Shown here piece by piece: positions 24,001 through 30,000 of a stretch of 59,552 nucleotides of DNA (positions within the stretch are counted from its first letter, which is position 1; each line of letters begins with the position of its first letter). The DNA is from Armatimonadota bacterium (lineage in GTDB: Bacteria; Armatimonadota; Zipacnadia; Zipacnadales; UBA5352), in contig JAYENL010000093.1 of NCBI GenBank assembly GCA_034722055.1, positions 29,622 to 89,173 on the forward strand, given 5' to 3'. The position numbers are program-made.

Positions 24001-27000
24001 TTGTCGCTGCCGTTATCCGTCGTAACCTGGTGGCGGGCCTGAGCTGGTGGAGGAATTCCGCCTGGTTGCGGGAACGCCACCATGTTCGCGTGTGGAGAGC
24101 CGGATTGGTGTCGGCGCGGAGAGGGCGCCGGCAGTCGTGCGAGAGGGTGCACGCCTGCTCATGTCGCTTCGGCCTGCAGTGATCACAGGTGTTGGGTCCT
24201 ACGTCCCCGAGCGCGTGCTCACGAACGCGGATCTCGAGGAGATCGTGGACACCAGCGACGAGTGGATCGTCAGTCACACGGGCATCAGGGAGCGCCGCAT
24301 CGCCTCCGACGAGCAGGCCACCTCTGATCTGGGAATCGAGGCCAGCCTCAGGGCCCTGGAGGACGCCGGTATCGGGCCGGAGGACCTGGGCCTGATCGTC
24401 TGCGCCACTGTCACCCCCGATCACCTCTTCCCCGCCACCGCCAACATCATCCAGGACCGTATCGGCGCGGAGAACGCCGCCGCCTTTGATCTGCTCAGCG
24501 GCTGCACCGGCTTCGTCTACGGCCTGTACGTGGCGCGCCAGTTCATCGCCACCGGGGAGAGTGACCCGGTGCTGGTGATCGCGGCGGAGAAGCTGACCTC
24601 CATCACCGACTGGACCGACCGCAGCACCTGCGTGCTTTTCGGCGACGGCGCGGGAGCGGCGGTGGTGGCTGCCGGTGACGGAGATCCCGACCGAGTGGGC
24701 CTCGTCGCCTTCGAGCTGGAGTCCTATGGCGAGCACGGGGGCCTGTTGATTGTGCCGGCGGGCGGCTCTCGCCAGCCCCTGGACGAGGAGCTGCTGGCCG
24801 CCCACGACGACTGCCTGCACATGAGCGGGCCGGAGCTGTTCAAGCTGGCGGTGCGCGGCATCCCGGAGGTGGCCGGCAAGACCATCGCCAGGGCCGGAAT
24901 CACCAACCGCGACATCGACTGGGTGGTCATGCACCAGGCCAACATGCGCATCATCGATGCCGCCGCCAGGCGTCTGGACATCCCGAACGAGCGCATGGTG
25001 GTCAATGTCGATAGGTACGGCAACACCTCCGGAGCCTCCATGGCCATCGCCCTGGATGAGGTCTACCGCGACGGCCGCCTGCAGCCCGGCGACAACGTGT
25101 TGATGGTGGGATTTGGGGCGGGGTTCAGCCTCGGCGGCGCCGTCATCCGCTGGACCGGCTAGCCGCCAAGCTTCAGAAAGCGCAGGGAGGAGACCCTCTT
25201 GGACTTCAGCTTCACCGAAGATCAGCAGATGATCGTGGACGCCGTGCGCGAGCTCGGCGAGGAGGAGCTGGCGCCCCGGGCCTCCGAGATCGCCGAGCGG
25301 GGCGAGTTCCCCTGGGAGAACGTCGAGCTGCTGCGGGAGATGGATCTCTGCGGCGTGCCTGTCCCTGAGGACTACGGCGGGCTCGACATGGGCTTTCTGA
25401 CGTGGGGTGTGGTTGGTGAGCTGCTCAGCTACTACTGCTCCACAACCGGTGCCATCTTCGGCGCCCACATGCTGGCCCAGTACCCCATCATGCAGTTCGG
25501 CACCGAGGAGCAGAAGCAGAAGTACCTGGTGCCTTTGACCACCGGGGAGAGCATCGGCGCCTTCGGCCTCACCGAGCCCAACGCGGGCTCGGACGCCGGC
25601 GCCGTTGCCACCAGGGCCGATCTGAAGGGCGACAAGTATATCCTCAACGGCACCAAGGTGTTCATATCCAACGGCGGCGAGGCCGAAGTCTACGTCATCA
25701 TCGCCAACATCGACCCCTCCAAGGGCACCCGCGGCCAGACTGCCTTCATCGTCGAGAAGGGCATGCCCGGCTTCGAGTTCGGCAAGGACGAGAAGAAGAT
25801 GGGCTGGGACGCGCTGCCCAATCGGGAGCTGATCTTCCAGGATTGCGAGGTCCCGGTCGAGAACGTGCTCTACAGGACCGGGCGGGGCTTCCGGGTGGCC
25901 ATGGAGACGCTCGGAATCGGCCGCCTGGGCATGGCCGTGGGCGCCGTCGGCCTGGCCCAGGCCGCCTTTGACGCCGCCATCGTCTACGCCCAGCAGCGGG
26001 AGCAGTTCGGGCAGCGGATCTCGGAGTTTCAGGCCATCCAGTTCAAGCTCGCCGACATGGCCACCGGGATCGAGGCCTCGCGGCTGCTGTACCAGCGGGC
26101 GGCCTGGCTCAAGGACCAGGGGGAGAAGTACGAGAAGCTGGCGGCCATGGCCAAGGTCTACTCCTCCGAGATGGTCTCACGCGTCACCTCTGATGCCGTG
26201 CAGATCCATGGTGGCGTGGGCTACACCCGCGACTTCCCCGTGGAGCGCTACATGCGCGAGGCCAAGCTGTTCGAGATCGTGGAGGGCACCTCGGAGATCC
26301 AGCGCGGCATCATCGCCAACCGCGTCCTGCGCGAGCACCGCATCTGAGCCGCGCTGCAATCGGAGCTGAGCGACCGATGAACATCATCGTGTGCATCAAA
26401 CAGGTCCCTGACACCTCCGAGGTGCAGATCGACCCGGAGACGAACACCATCGTCCGGGAGGGCGTGCCGGCGATCATCAACCCCTTCGATGAGAACGCCA
26501 TCGAGGCGGCCGTCCAGCTTGTGGAGGAGCATGGCGGCACGGTCACCGTCATCTCCATGGGGCCGCCGCAGGCCGAGGACGCGCTGCGCGAGGCCCTCGC
26601 CATGGGCGCTGACGAGGCCATCCTGATCTCCGACCGCTGCTTCGCCGCCTCCGATACCCTCGCCACCTCCTACGTGCTCTCCTCCGCCATTCGGCAGATC
26701 GGGGACTACGATCTGATCCTGACCGGCAAGCAGGCCTTCGACGGCGACACCGCTCAGGTCCCGCCGGGCATCGCCGAGCACCTGGGCATCCCCCAGGTCA
26801 CCTTCGCCATCGGCCTGGAGGTGGACGGCAAGGCGCTGACGGTCCGCCGGCTGCTGGAGGACGAGTTCGAGGTCACGCAGGTCGAGATGCCGGCGGTGGT
26901 CTCGTGCGTCAAGCAGATGAACGAGCCCCGGCGCCCCGGCATTAAGGCCAAGCTGGCGGCGAAGAAGAAAAACGTGCAGGTGTGGGACCAGACCTGCATG

Positions 27001-30000
27001 GACGTGGACGCCTGCCTGTGCGGGCTGGATGGCTCGCCCACCCGCGTGGTCCGCACCTTCGCACCCACCCGCAACACCGAAGGCACGAGGTTCGAGGGCG
27101 AGCCGAAGGAGACCGCCACCGCGGTCATCGAGGCCCTCATCGACGACAAGATCATCTGACGCCCGCGCGAAGAGCCACTCCGCCCGCGGACCGCGCGGCC
27201 CGTTTGGACCCGTTCGGGAGCGACGCGATGGGCATATACATCGACAAGCCCAAGTGCATCGGATGCGAGCTGTGCATCCCGGCCTGCCCCTACGGGGCCA
27301 TCGACATGGTCGATGAGAAGGCCGAGTTCAACGAGAACTGCACCATGTGCGGCGCCTGCGCCTACGCCTGCCCCACCGGCGCGATCGTGCTGGAGATGGC
27401 GGGCAAGGGCGAGGTGGACACCTCGCAGTACGAGGGCCTGTGGGTCGTCGGTGAGATTGGGCCCGAGGGCACGCTGGCCCCCGTCACCGCCGAGCTGATC
27501 GGCGAGGGCCGCAGGCTGGCAGCGGACCTCGGCACCGACGTCAGCGTTGTGCTCATGGGCCATGAGATCGCGGACCTGGCCGACGTGGCCGCCGGCTACG
27601 GCGCCGACCGCGTCTTCCTGGTGGACCATCCCACGCTCGGGCGCTACCGCACCCAGCCGTTCACGGACGTCCTGACGGGGCTGATCAACAAGCACAAGCC
27701 CGAGATCGTGCTCATCGGCGCCACCACCATGGGCCGCGACCTGGCCTCCCGCGTCGCGGCGCGCATCCGGGCCGGGCTGACTGCCGACTGCACGGAGCTG
27801 AGCATCCAGCCGGAGACCAGGCTCCTGGAGCAGACCCGACCGGCCTTCGGCGGCAACGTCATGGCCACCATCCTCTGCGAGTACACCCGCCCGCAGATGG
27901 CCACCGTGCGGCCCAAGGTCATGACGCCTATGGAGTTCGATGACAGCCGGGAGGCCGAGGTCATCCAGGTCCCGGTGGAGATCGACGAGGGGTCCATCGC
28001 CACCCGCATCCTGGAGGTCATCAAGGACGAGACCGGCAGCGACGTCAACCTCACCGAGGCCGACATCATCGTCTCCGGCGGACGCGGGCTGGGGGATCCG
28101 AAGCACTTCGCGCTTATCGAGGAGCTTGCGGAGCTGCTGGGCGGCGCCGTGGGCGCCTCCCGGGCCACCGTGGACGCCGGATGGATCCCTGCCACGCACC
28201 AGGTGGGGCAGACCGGCAAGACCGTGCATCCCAAGCTCTACATCGCCTGCGGCATCTCCGGCGCTGTGCAGCACCTGGCCGGCATGTCCTCCTCCGACTG
28301 CATCGTGGCCGTCAACAAGGACCCCGACGCGCCCATCTTCAACGTGGCGCACTACGGGATCGTGGGCGACCTGTTCGAGGTCGTGCCGGCCATGATCGAG
28401 GCCTTCAAGCAGCGGCGGGGTGAGTGAGTGGTGATCGCCTTCGTCTTCCCCGGGCAGAACTCGCACTACGTGGGGATGGGTGAGGACCTCTACGAGGCCG
28501 GCGGCCCCCCGAGGCTGGCTCTGGAGGTCGCGGAGGGCGCCCTGGGCGCCGACCTGCTGCAGGTGATGTTCGAGGGGCCGGAGGATGCGCTCACTCGCAC
28601 CGACAACCAGCAGCCCGCCATCGCAGCTCACTCCCTGGCGGCATTGGCGGGCCTGCGCGACGCCGGCATTGAGCCGGACTTCGTGGCCGGCCACAGCCTC
28701 GGGGAGTACTCGGCCGTCGCCTGCGCCGGGTGCCTCACGCCGGAGCAGGTCCTGCATCTGGTGCGCTTCCGGGGCGAGCTGATGGCCCGTGCGGGCGAGG
28801 AGTGCCCCGGCGCCATGGCGGCCGTCCTGGGCCTGGACGCCGAGGAGGTGGAGGCGGTGGTCGCCCGGGCGCGGGAGGACGACGTCCTGGTCGTCGCGAA
28901 CTACAACTCCCCGGGGCAGATCGTCATCTCGGGCGAGGTGGGCGCGGTGGAGCGGGCCGGTGCGCTGGCCGAGGAGGCTGGCGCGAAGCGCGTCATCCCC
29001 CTCAAGGTCAGTGGAGCCTTCCACTCCTCCCTGATGGGGCCGGCGGTCGACCTGCTCATCGAGCGTCTCGAGGAGATCGACCTTGCGCCGGCGGACGTGC
29101 CCGTCGTCGCCAACGCGGACGCCCTGCCGCACACCGAACCGGCCCAGGTCCGGGAGTGCCTGGGCAGGCAGATGACCACCAGCGTCCTATGGGAGCAGAG
29201 CGTGCGTCGGCTGGCCGAGGAGGGCGTGGAGACGCTGGTGGAGGTCGGTCCCGGCACGGTGCTGAGCAGGCTCATCCGCAGGATCGACCCGGAGCTGCAG
29301 GTCCTTAACGTGGACACCGCAGAGGACCTGCAGCAGGCCGTCGCCCGGCTCACATAGCGAGCGGTCGCTGGCGGAAATGGTTGGATCCTCACTACGAGGG
29401 CAGTCGAGGGGGTACATTGCTGCCAGGACGGGCACCATTGAGATGGAGGGGTCGCCGGTTCCACCCCGGCCCAGAGCCCCGTCCCGCCGGAGGTGTGGGT
29501 CTTGCAGCTTCAGGACCAGGTTGCCATAATCACGGGAGCGGGTGGCGGCATCGGCGCCGCCATCGCCCACACGCTGGCCGATGCCGGCGCACACATCGTC
29601 GTCAATGACGTCGCGGAGGCGGCGGCGGAGAAGGTCGCCGCCGAGGTCGGCGAGCGCGGCGTGGAGGCCATGGTGAGCGCCGCCGACATCACTGACGCGG
29701 AGCAGGTCCAGGACATGATGGACGAGGTGATGAAGCGCTTTCAGCGCATAGACATCCTCGTCAACAACGCCGGCATCACCCGCGACGCGCTGCTCGTGCG
29801 CATGGGCGAGGAGCAATGGGACGCCGTCCTGGACGTGAATCTCAAGGGAGCCTTCCTATGCACCAGAGCCGTGGCCAGGCCCATGATGCGGGCACGCTAC
29901 GGTCGGATCGTCAACATGGCGTCCGTCGCCGGGGTGGCCGGGAATGCCGGACAGGCCAACTACTCGGCCTCCAAGGGCGGTCTGATCTCGCTGACCAAGA

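Follow-up and report, generated by a model that had tools for sequence, protein, structure and literature searches.

The window, that is, the whole stretch of 59,552 nucleotides analysed here (contig JAYENL010000093.1 of an Armatimonadota bacterium), contains a fatty-acid synthesis (fab) cluster with the + strand gene order plsX-fabH-ACAD-etfB-Fd/etfA-fabD-fabG-acp-acp-fabF-rnc. The genes coding for an acyl-CoA dehydrogenase (ACAD), EtfB and a ferredoxin (Fd)-fused EtfA, which a preliminary description had placed inside the fab operon, are indeed found between fabH and fabD. The features are as follows:

21738..21766, +, sigma-70-like promoter consensus upstream of the cluster (11/12 match; consensus match only)
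22370..22576, +, ORF preceding plsX (ORF call)
22662..23666, +, plsX, phosphate acyltransferase (TIGR00182, 356 bits, over cut-off)
24167..25162, +, fabH, beta-ketoacyl-ACP synthase III (TIGR00747, 388 bits, over cut-off)
25199..26347, +, Bcd-like ACAD of clade A, 382 aa, candidate enoyl-ACP reductase subunit (PF02771/PF02770/PF00441)
26377..27159, +, etfB, bifurcating group (bit scores against bifurcating and canonical EtfB chains; motifs)
27228..28427, +, etfA with N-terminal 2x[4Fe-4S] ferredoxin domain, CarE architecture (PF00037 twice, PF01012, PF00766)
28428..29357, +, fabD, malonyl-CoA:ACP transacylase (TIGR00128, 310 bits)
29493..30242, +, fabG, 3-oxoacyl-ACP reductase (TIGR01830, 332 bits)
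30267..30503, +, acyl carrier protein 1 (TIGR00517, 93 bits)
30615..30848, +, acyl carrier protein 2, canonical (TIGR00517, 100 bits)
30949..32190, +, fabF, beta-ketoacyl-ACP synthase II (TIGR03150, 548 bits)
32246..32947, +, rnc, ribonuclease III, end of the cluster (TIGR02191, 239 bits)

The gaps measure 36 nt (fabH/ACAD), 29 (ACAD/etfB), 68 (etfB/etfA) and 0 (etfA/fabD), the fabD start immediately following the etfA stop. The search for sigma-70-like promoters returned 2 sites vs 0.7 expected. Judging from its sequence, the ORF preceding plsX is presumably rpmF (ribosomal protein L32); its position relative to the cluster is conserved among relatives. The first acyl carrier protein displays an atypical helix II in the alignment.

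Enoyl-ACP reduction is the last step of each fatty-acid elongation cycle, and the Bcd-Etf flavoprotein complex is known from butyrate fermentation. Consistent with the single ACAD/ETF pair described earlier, tblastn returned one match each for the ACAD and etfB in the genome, and for etfA one full-length match plus two short ferredoxin-domain matches. The ACAD has the three domains, the catalytic Glu and the EtfA-docking residues of the Bcd-EtfAB type. Its closest solved structures are 4L1F and 5OL2 (TM 0.95, 50-52% identity), and an AlphaFold model confirmed the Bcd fold, while being silent on the substrate. Glu362, the catalytic residue, is invariant in 38 sequences; the docking residues F155 and E198 are invariant and T343 nearly so, and Y340 and Y346 of Clostridium difficile Bcd correspond to V and F. 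The trio harbours ACAD and ETF domains only, with neither the SDR Rossmann fold nor the NMO TIM-barrel of FabI, FabL, FabV and FabK. The best NCBIfam matches of the ACAD and ETF, those to AcrABC (acryloyl-CoA reductase), are below the cut-offs (439/640, 252/475 and 391/600 bits), as are those of the ACAD to the RedW, PigA and MbtN models (260/650, 255/500 and 70/700 bits). In the ESM Atlas, the ACAD matched generic ACAD clusters only.

Sequence comparisons clearly place the ETF in the bifurcating group. EtfB scores 220-243 bits against five bifurcating EtfB chains vs 78-99 against canonical ones, and EtfA scores 434 bits against CarE (6FAH) over residues 2-393. Arg204 of EtfA, within TRPAFGG, corresponds to R136 of C. 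difficile EtfA, the Arg at N5 of the bifurcating FAD, and the SPT anchor is present in 41/41 EtfB proteins of the ACAD clade to which the window ACAD belongs (clade A). The EtfB motifs diagnostic for bifurcation are DGDTAQVGP (b-FAD) and RxFxG (NAD site) (PMC9232219). Both deviate in the window EtfB, which reads DGDTAQVPP and RCFAA, and the exact RxFxG motif occurs in 10/41 clade-A copies vs 38/43 copies of the second clade (clade B). Thus, the earlier wording 'possibly electron-bifurcating' stands as regards the group but has become less sure for clade A. If the trio is an enoyl-ACP reductase, bifurcation has about even odds in clade A, and better odds in clade B.

The genome, 92.7% complete, codes for PlsX, FabH, FabD, FabG, FabF, ACP, FabZ and lipid A proteins. 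Profile and sequence searches, which covered FabI, FabK, FabV and FabL-like proteins and left out MDR-type, OYE-type and FabMG enzymes, found none of the known reductases, in agreement with the preliminary description for FabI, FabK and FabV. FabI queries from Escherichia coli and a relative gave at best an E value of 1e-9, and the sole, sub-cut-off FabK/NMO candidate is a SOR/SNZ (PdxS) protein. FabV gave no match in the genome; the same search, previously without a positive control, returned 1.3e-110 in another genome. A separate FabL-like query yielded best matches of 25-27% identity. Neither FabI nor FabL is among the best NCBIfam matches of any of the 12 SDRs, as reported. The presence of the fatty-acid synthesis genes while known reductases were not found is a first argument for the reading that we favour, with a probability of roughly 0.72: that the ACAD-EtfB-Fd/EtfA trio is an ETF-coupled enoyl-ACP reductase of type II fatty-acid synthesis. 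This interpretation, already put forward in the preliminary description, is inferred from gene context and distribution.

Alternatively, the ACAD might be a true butyryl-CoA (short acyl-CoA) dehydrogenase reducing crotonyl-CoA for FabH primer supply or as a fermentation sink, with crotonyl-CoA provided by thiolase, a PhaB-like reductase, and an activity of FabZ towards CoA thioesters. Its nearest solved structures are Bcd enzymes, it adjoins fabH in the window's order, and Hbd is present in 41/79 class genomes. Thiolase and Hbd, which go unmentioned in the preliminary description, share one cluster with the PhaB-like reductase in the genome. Nevertheless, the butyrate route from thiolase through Hbd and crotonase is incomplete, as neither crotonase (ECH) nor MaoC was found in the genome, which bears out the earlier statement. 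Within the class, crotonase-family matches occur in 4/79 genomes and Hbd in 41/79, vs 71 for the ACAD, with some 30 genomes having the ACAD but no Hbd; there thus appears to be no CoA-side source of the enoyl substrate. Furthermore, this role would leave the exclusion of FabI, described below, unaccounted for and the later cycles without a reductase, and we regard it as unlikely. Two further ideas were discarded. A 2-hydroxyacyl-CoA dehydratase-like gene is an unlikely enoyl-CoA source, as it codes for a single subunit and has only DUF366 and a radical-SAM gene as neighbours. A function of thl-phaB in PHB synthesis found no support, as PhaC_N gave no match in 5/5 genomes, although class III synthases may escape this search.

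The ACAD matched 73 of the 79 class genomes, two matches being short contig-end fragments, which leaves the 71 genomes previously counted. Its position beside fabH in 27/29 loci holds for the best-scoring loci, but of 10 more distant class genomes that we opened, only 4 include it among the operon genes (G004, G014, G021 and G023, as opposed to G003, G007, G008, G010, G011 and G013). Among 401 genomes of the phylum, FabI is found in 5/118 ACAD carriers vs 235/283 others, and the 48 genomes with neither include 6 with FabK and 10 with a FabL-like SDR; owing to kinship among these genomes, the counts suggest more independent cases than there are. In family f30, devoid of the ACAD, FabK over the cut-off occupies the fabH-fabD slot in 5/5 genomes. 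Other swaps occurred in separate lineages, with FabK in G001, FabL-like proteins in G002 and f37, FabI-type proteins in G094 and G260, and a clade-B ACAD in G013, which belongs to a clade-A order. Both the near-complementary distribution of the ACAD with FabI, FabK and FabL-like proteins and the FabK gene in the identical slot argue for the reductase reading. Two further genes of related operons were identified: a gene of ~397 aa after fabF in other families codes for an aminotransferase, and the additional SDR fragment that precedes fabG in f15 resembles FabG.

Other observations speak against a reductase role. Five ACAD carriers keep FabI, including all 3 f4 genomes tested, and 30/401 genomes lack any candidate at the thresholds used; 16 of these 30 come from one family, in which FabI scores sit at the threshold, the others having no such explanation. 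In f10, f13, f14, f15, f36 and f47, the clade-A gene is not part of the fab operon, and the same holds for all clade-B copies opened in the phylum. These data could reflect lifestyle and ancestry: anaerobic lineages would retain a housekeeping Bcd-Etf for some other redox function, with a separate, unknown enoyl reductase and an accidental, inherited operon position. Many orthologues outside the operon with unrelated neighbours, the candidate-less genomes and the non-independence of kin fit this scenario. Nevertheless, near-complete relatives missing the ACAD usually have a known-type reductase instead, and two ACAD clades, ungrouped in a free tree, are found at several fab-operon positions in at least eight phylum-level groups. 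We consider it quite improbable.

The two clades are separate, clade A including the window ACAD and clade B being wider. Clade-A genes follow fabH or fabF-rnc, and 30/80 metagenome loci are fab-linked. For clade B, 24/80 genome loci are fab-linked, in at least eight phylum-level groups and in four or more operon positions. The arrangement thus reaches beyond the class as claimed, but largely through clade B, whose members are only 45-53% identical to the window ACAD. In a tree with outgroups of unrelated ACADs, taken from a profile search of 50%-identity representatives, the clades did not group together when unconstrained, although a single origin was not rejected (p-AU 0.20). Clade-B genomes rarely code for FabI (3/50), FabV (1/50) or FabK over the cut-off (0/50). 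Fab links of two clades at several positions, and operons with the ACAD but without fabH in the operon (L204, L221 and L229 in clade B), argue for the reductase reading, the latter also against a butyryl-CoA dehydrogenase supplying FabH. Against it, 50/80 metagenome (clade-A) and 56/80 clade-B loci have no core fab gene, some being on short contigs, and 6/22 clade-B genomes tested harbour a FabL-like SDR.

In three loci (L068, L226 and L338), FabI adjoins the trio, which could mean separate jobs. The trio might then oxidize acyl-ACP, in a FabX-like back-tracking by electron confurcation yielding unsaturated or 3-hydroxy chains, with enoyl reduction left to an unrecognized enzyme. There are precedents: Helicobacter pylori FabX reverses enoyl reduction (PMC8626469), and ACAD-fold enzymes oxidizing ACP-bound chains exist, namely TcsD and Nmex-ACAD (10.1101/736256). 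An oxidative role, however, predicts neither the loss of FabI and FabK in carriers nor FabK in the same slot. In addition, the NCBIfam models for acyl-carrier dehydrogenases are outscored by the Bcd-like ones and do not reach their own cut-offs, and no isomerase partner was seen in the cluster. Such a function is very improbable.

Syntrophobacter fumaroxidans has a likely clade-B gene, Sfum_1371, between rpmF and fabG-fabF. Its product is abundant in all conditions tested in this organism, which grows on neither butyrate nor crotonate (PMC5947623), and its abundance tracks that of FabG across 15 samples (r = 0.73). This expression in a bacterium not using butyrate also favours the reductase reading, which the same gene order in a cultured organism makes directly testable.

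In such a reaction, FabZ would make trans-2-enoyl-ACP, whose phosphopantetheine arm would enter the ACAD channel that accepts CoA thioesters in Bcd. A hydride would pass from reduced FAD to C3 and Glu362 would protonate C2; EtfAB would re-reduce the ACAD FAD in single-electron steps, with NAD(P)H as the donor. Should the ETF bifurcate as in Bcd-EtfAB, each cycle would use 2 NADH and also gain 2 reduced ferredoxins, electrons being relayed via the fused 2x[4Fe-4S] domain. The 'DGGR' motif of Bcd is without its Asp in most clade-A members ('GIGR' in the window ACAD), and the Tyr preceding the catalytic Glu is replaced by Val ('YEG' to 'VEG'). Basic residues near the substrate entrance (175, 178, 209 and 226) are commoner in both clades than in 71 other ACADs. 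These residue changes lend weak support to the reductase reading. Conversely, a short-chain Bcd pocket may poorly accommodate C12-C16 chains, the genome harbours thiolase, Hbd and the PhaB-like reductase, and the clade-A NAD-site motif is degenerate.

Altogether, the trio probably carries out the last elongation step by an undescribed route that might save energy. We found no proposal of an enoyl-ACP reductase role for ACAD-Etf in the literature covered, which mostly excluded subscription journals. More tentatively, and with somewhat less than even odds, it may represent a further, bifurcating class of enoyl-ACP reductases, recruited at least twice from ACADs and standard in many anaerobic and uncultured phyla. 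If the reductase reading is true, it would close a gap in an essential pathway of the many anaerobes in whose genomes no known enoyl-ACP reductase is seen, and would explain the expression of 'butyryl-CoA dehydrogenase' genes in organisms not using butyrate. It would then be unsafe, in metagenomes, to take Bcd-Etf as a sign of butyrate production or of syntrophic growth by butyrate oxidation. Flavin-based electron bifurcation, hitherto described in energy metabolism, would extend to an ACP-bound biosynthetic step; if the trio bifurcates, membrane-lipid synthesis would yield reduced ferredoxin, an energy-conserving step in a core anabolic pathway.

Compared with known systems, the trio resembles Bcd-EtfAB (C. 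difficile 5OL2; A. fermentans 4L1F/4KPU) in its fold, three-subunit layout, ACAD identity (50-52%), catalytic Glu, F155/E198/T343 docking face, EtfA Arg (R136) and SPT motif. It differs in being placed among fab genes instead of beside crotonase (not found in the genome), Hbd and thiolase, in the ferredoxin domain of EtfA, the deviating EtfB motifs, 'GIGR' for 'DGGR' and 'VEG' for 'YEG', and in its proposed ACP-bound substrate. Like CarCDE, the caffeyl-CoA reductase-Etf of Acetobacterium woodii (6FAH), it has an EtfA with two N-terminal [4Fe-4S] clusters, and CarCDE provides the best full-length EtfA match (434 bits; EtfB, 241 bits). Nevertheless, the window ACAD is nearer to Bcd (409 bits) than to CarC (302 bits), and caffeate activation genes are absent from the cluster.

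The carrier-protein-dependent ACADs TcsD, RedW, PigA and MbtN indicate that the fold can take ACP- or PCP-bound substrates; they are oxidative enzymes of secondary metabolism, unlike the proposed role of the trio, and the window ACAD is far below their cut-offs. TcsD lacks the Asp that binds the CoA adenine (10.1101/736256). In mitochondrial wax-ester synthesis of Euglena gracilis, an acyl-CoA dehydrogenase with ETF similarly reduces trans-2-enoyl thioesters in fatty-acid synthesis, but by a reverse beta-oxidation of CoA-bound chains, which complex I and rhodoquinone feed; that system is not ACP-bound and, in the part of the report available, not described as bifurcating (PMC6587861). Relative to FabI, FabL and FabV (SDR) and FabK (a TIM-barrel flavoprotein), the trio is unrelated in fold and comprises three subunits with FAD and Fe-S clusters; its electrons would arrive via ETF, with a possible split towards ferredoxin. 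It shares with these enzymes the proposed reaction and, with FabK, the same operon slot in relatives.

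The fab-operon cluster with an embedded acyl-CoA dehydrogenase (ACAD) and electron-transfer flavoprotein genes, noted in the preliminary description, is present in the window, as judged from ORFs and from domain and NCBIfam matches. The order on the + strand is plsX, fabH, ACAD, etfB, etfA, fabD, fabG, two ACP genes, fabF and rnc. The inserted trio comprises the following genes.

25199-26347, + strand, ACAD (acyl-CoA dehydrogenase)
26377-27159, + strand, etfB
27228 (ATG)-28427, + strand, etfA with a two-cluster ferredoxin domain

Spacings are 36 nt (fabH/ACAD), 29 nt (ACAD/etfB), 68 nt (etfB/etfA) and 0 nt (etfA/fabD). 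As reported before, ACAD and ETF occur in single copy in this genome (6.1 Mb, 92.7% complete). We propose, with a probability of roughly 0.7, that in this trio a known machine has, in variant form, taken on a new role, that of enoyl-ACP reductase. One of the two ACPs (30267-30503) has an atypical helix II, with DSLLMM in place of DSLDVV; tandem ACPs are also found at loci L294 and L334. The intergenic sequence at 19228-20830 contains two blocks of ~750 nt that are nearly identical; in each, a short unit is repeated in tandem runs and reads as repeated 'AVSYQLS' in open frames. Related sequence lies between plsX and fabH.

The search for known reductases in this genome covered FabI, FabK, FabV and FabL-like proteins, with MDR-, OYE- and FabMG-type enzymes outside it. 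FabI queries gave a best E-value of 1e-9, the FabK/NMO search a single weak match that is PdxS, and the FabL-like query a top identity of 25-27%. The claimed absence of FabV holds, as no match was found in the genome by a search that scores 1.3e-110 in another one. One of the 12 SDRs is the operon FabG, and neither FabI nor FabL is among the five best NCBIfam matches of any of the other 11. Y-x6-K is the spacing rule applied to the catalytic motif of SDRs; it was seen in none of the 10 of those 11 read for the motif, within the scanned stretch. FabZ is encoded within a lipid A operon, and de novo fatty-acid synthesis is therefore needed.

With respect to a CoA substrate, genes for a thiolase, Hbd and a PhaB-like reductase lie together on contig C69 of the genome, a point missing from the preliminary description. 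This cluster (L274, G000:C69:192-3034) has no crotonase, PhaC was not detected in it, and in genome G035 it occurs with a CoA transferase; it possibly serves 3-hydroxybutyrate formation or R/S interconversion. Among the 79 class genomes, four gave crotonase-family matches, only one of them full-length, and 41 have Hbd, versus 71 for the ACAD; no MaoC was found in five genomes searched. Because these enzymes are rarer than the ACAD, the latter is kept without the butyrate route. This argument against a CoA substrate still leaves room for FabZ, which may act on CoA thioesters. Two further features were observed. A conserved, lone 2-hydroxyacyl-CoA dehydratase-like gene (L275:746-3313 on G000:C24; also L279, L280 and L282) neighbours either DUF366 and radical-SAM genes or a 6-pyruvoyl-tetrahydropterin synthase-family gene, and may have a part in making deazaguanines or pterins. 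A second cluster (L249, G000:C104:236-5194) encodes a FabG-like reductase, a FabF-like synthase with a degenerate synthase-like partner, and PDH E1-alpha-like and lipoyl-domain proteins; it could represent a small system for a type II polyketide or a special lipid.

The search of the phylum covered 401 genomes with a completeness of 80% or more, the queries being the ACAD, a FabI and the FabK model. Two ACAD groups stand out, nearly always single-copy. Clade A comprises 65 genomes (the class plus families f36 and f47), at 62-94% identity to the window's ACAD. Clade B comprises 53 genomes (f16, f19, f31, f32, f34, f51 and genome G013), at 44-51% identity; its membership was set by score band and family, with ~20 of the 53 placed on the tree. 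FabI (E <=1e-40) is found in 5 of the 118 carriers of either clade versus 235 of the 283 other genomes. As kin genomes are not independent, we put weight on separate swaps, in genomes G001, G002, G013, G094, G260 and G299 and families f30 and f37. Exceptions are G018, G021 and G023 (f4), G008 and G155, which hold FabI and clade A together.

Neither ACAD clade nor FabI was found in 48 genomes. Six of these have FabK: in five f30 genomes it scores over the cut-off and always lies in the order plsX-fabH-fabK-fabD, the slot of the trio in the window, and in G001 it is split over two frames by either a true frameshift or an assembly error (L079/L133, C2:126234-127152; genome 100% complete, without ACAD and FabI). 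A FabL-like SDR (best model FabL at 126 bits, below the 328 cut-off) occurs in 10 of the 48, 26 of which were tested; it is probably an uncharacterised enoyl-ACP reductase subfamily. It is encoded at L134:1141-1959 in G146 and also in G122, G200, G216, G315, G002 and G160, where FabI, FabK and ACAD are missing. Two f33 genomes have a third ACAD-ETF type; it is single-copy (L051, L057), outside clades A and B, and both genomes lack FabI, FabK and the FabL-like SDR. The remaining 30 yielded none of these at the thresholds used: 16 belong to family f24, with FabI scores right at threshold, G094 has a FabI-like protein (35% identity), G016 and G055 lack fabD as well, so their whole operon is unassembled, and the rest are unexplained. 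The FabL-like SDR was also found in 6 of 22 clade-B genomes tested versus 0 of 30 clade-A genomes (three weak matches, 35-37%), and five f31 genomes encode a FabK-like protein (~240 bits) outside the operon.

The reported adjacency of fabH and ACAD in 27 of 29 class loci is correct as a count, but these are the best-scoring loci and the figure flatters the case. Clade A lies outside the fab operon in f10, f13, f14, f15, f36 and f47, where unrelated genes usually surround a bare ACAD-etfB-etfA unit, and clade B is likewise outside it in this phylum. Of the families with clade A outside the operon, f13, f14 and f15 have one more FabG-like gene, in degenerate form, between fabD and fabG (L105-L108; ~200 aa in L107 and L108). 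Core fab genes accompany 30 of 80 metagenome clade-A loci, many on short contigs, and 9 of the 22 with long flanks; the fab-linked trio follows either fabH or fabF-rnc.

A search of GTDB with the clade-B alignment gave at least 588 loci; of the 80 that scored best, 24 are fab-linked. Within these best 80, fab-linked hosts include Omnitrophota, Nitrospirota, Desulfobacterota-type deltaproteobacteria, Margulisbacteria/Saganbacteria, Firestonebacteria, Edwardsbacteria, Ratteibacteria, Planctomycetota and further groups, and the trio takes at least four different operon positions. Three clade-B fab operons (L204, L221, L229) lack fabH. In 50 genomes from the best 80 loci (all 24 fab-linked and 26 others, completeness not given), FabI was found in three, FabK over the cut-off in none and FabV in one. 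FabI directly adjoins the trio at L068, L226 and L338; isoenzyme genes are often adjacent. Both clades are well supported and unjoined in the free tree; the test of a common origin for the two did not reject it (p-AU 0.20). In Acidobacteriota, Gemmatimonadota and one Akkermansiaceae genome, the clade-B ACAD has no ETF beside it (L169-L174, L178); FabI is missing from all six of these genomes that were tested, and at least G444 carries the FabL-like SDR.

Syntrophobacter fumaroxidans, a cultured organism, offers proteomic data. In the part of PMC5947623 available, Sfum_1369 is L32, Sfum_1371 'butyryl-CoA dehydrogenase', 1372-1373 ETF, 1374 FabG and 1375 FabF, which is the order of L221. The same part reports no growth on butyrate or crotonate and abundant Sfum_1371 under all conditions, and proposes no lipid role for it. 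Sfum_1371 abundance tracks FabG (r = 0.73, 15 samples), in unnormalised values, so part of the correlation may come from shared loading. No protein named enoyl-ACP reductase is among the S. fumaroxidans sheet rows searched, where naming may differ, and FabI is abundant in the Desulfovibrio sheet (PMC5947623). Crotonases are present in S. fumaroxidans, and a FabI in the related genome that holds L221.

The model of the window's ACAD matches Bcd (TM 0.95), and Glu362 is invariant. Within the Bcd 'DGGR' motif, clade B retains the Asp but most of clade A has Gly or Ala there; we take this Asp to be the one absent from TcsD. TcsD, whose substrates are ACP-bound chains, is described without an adenine-binding Asp in the portion seen of 10.1101/736256. 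Also retained are F155, E198 and T343, the EtfA-docking residues of C. difficile Bcd according to the accessible part of PMC5691135. Lys or Arg occupies positions 175, 209 and 226 in 86-98% of clade A and B sequences versus 8-31% of 71 other ACADs; this would weakly suggest a fit to acidic ACP, two of the positions being common to clostridial Bcd. The ETF scores 220-243 bits to bifurcating EtfB versus 78-99 to canonical. EtfA is closest to CarE, keeps the Arg at the bifurcating flavin and has both clusters in 13 of 14 clade-A copies. Of the bifurcating EtfB motifs listed in the part available of PMC9232219 (SPT, DGDTAQVGP, RxFxG), the window's EtfB has SPT intact, ...VPP for the second and RCFAA for the third. 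An exact RxFxG occurs in 10 of 41 clade-A versus 38 of 43 clade-B copies; accordingly, bifurcation with NADH is likely in clade B and about as likely as not in clade A.

Most likely, the trio would reduce trans-2-enoyl-ACP with electrons from the ETF. FabI and FabK lose the NADH-to-enoyl potential drop as heat. The potentials given in the part seen of PMC5691135 are -10 mV (crotonyl/butyryl), -320 mV (NADH) and -405 mV (ferredoxin). A bifurcating enzyme could store half of the electrons as reduced ferredoxin; the gain would be modest, given how little flux goes into lipid synthesis. A simpler ground for recruitment may be that the machine was already present in anaerobes.

No description of such a role was found in the literature searched, which largely excluded subscription journals. 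From the parts seen, the mitochondria of Euglena, with their CoA-based synthesis, come closest to a precedent (PMC6587861); the CoA-based synthesis of archaea relies on an MDR enzyme instead (10.1101/2024.07.05.601840). The trio is not a member of the known enoyl-ACP reductase families, scores below the cut-offs of AcrABC and carrier-protein ACADs, and is set apart from butyrate-pathway Bcd by its gene context. It resembles Bcd-EtfAB/CarCDE in chemistry and, presumably, FabI and FabK in role.
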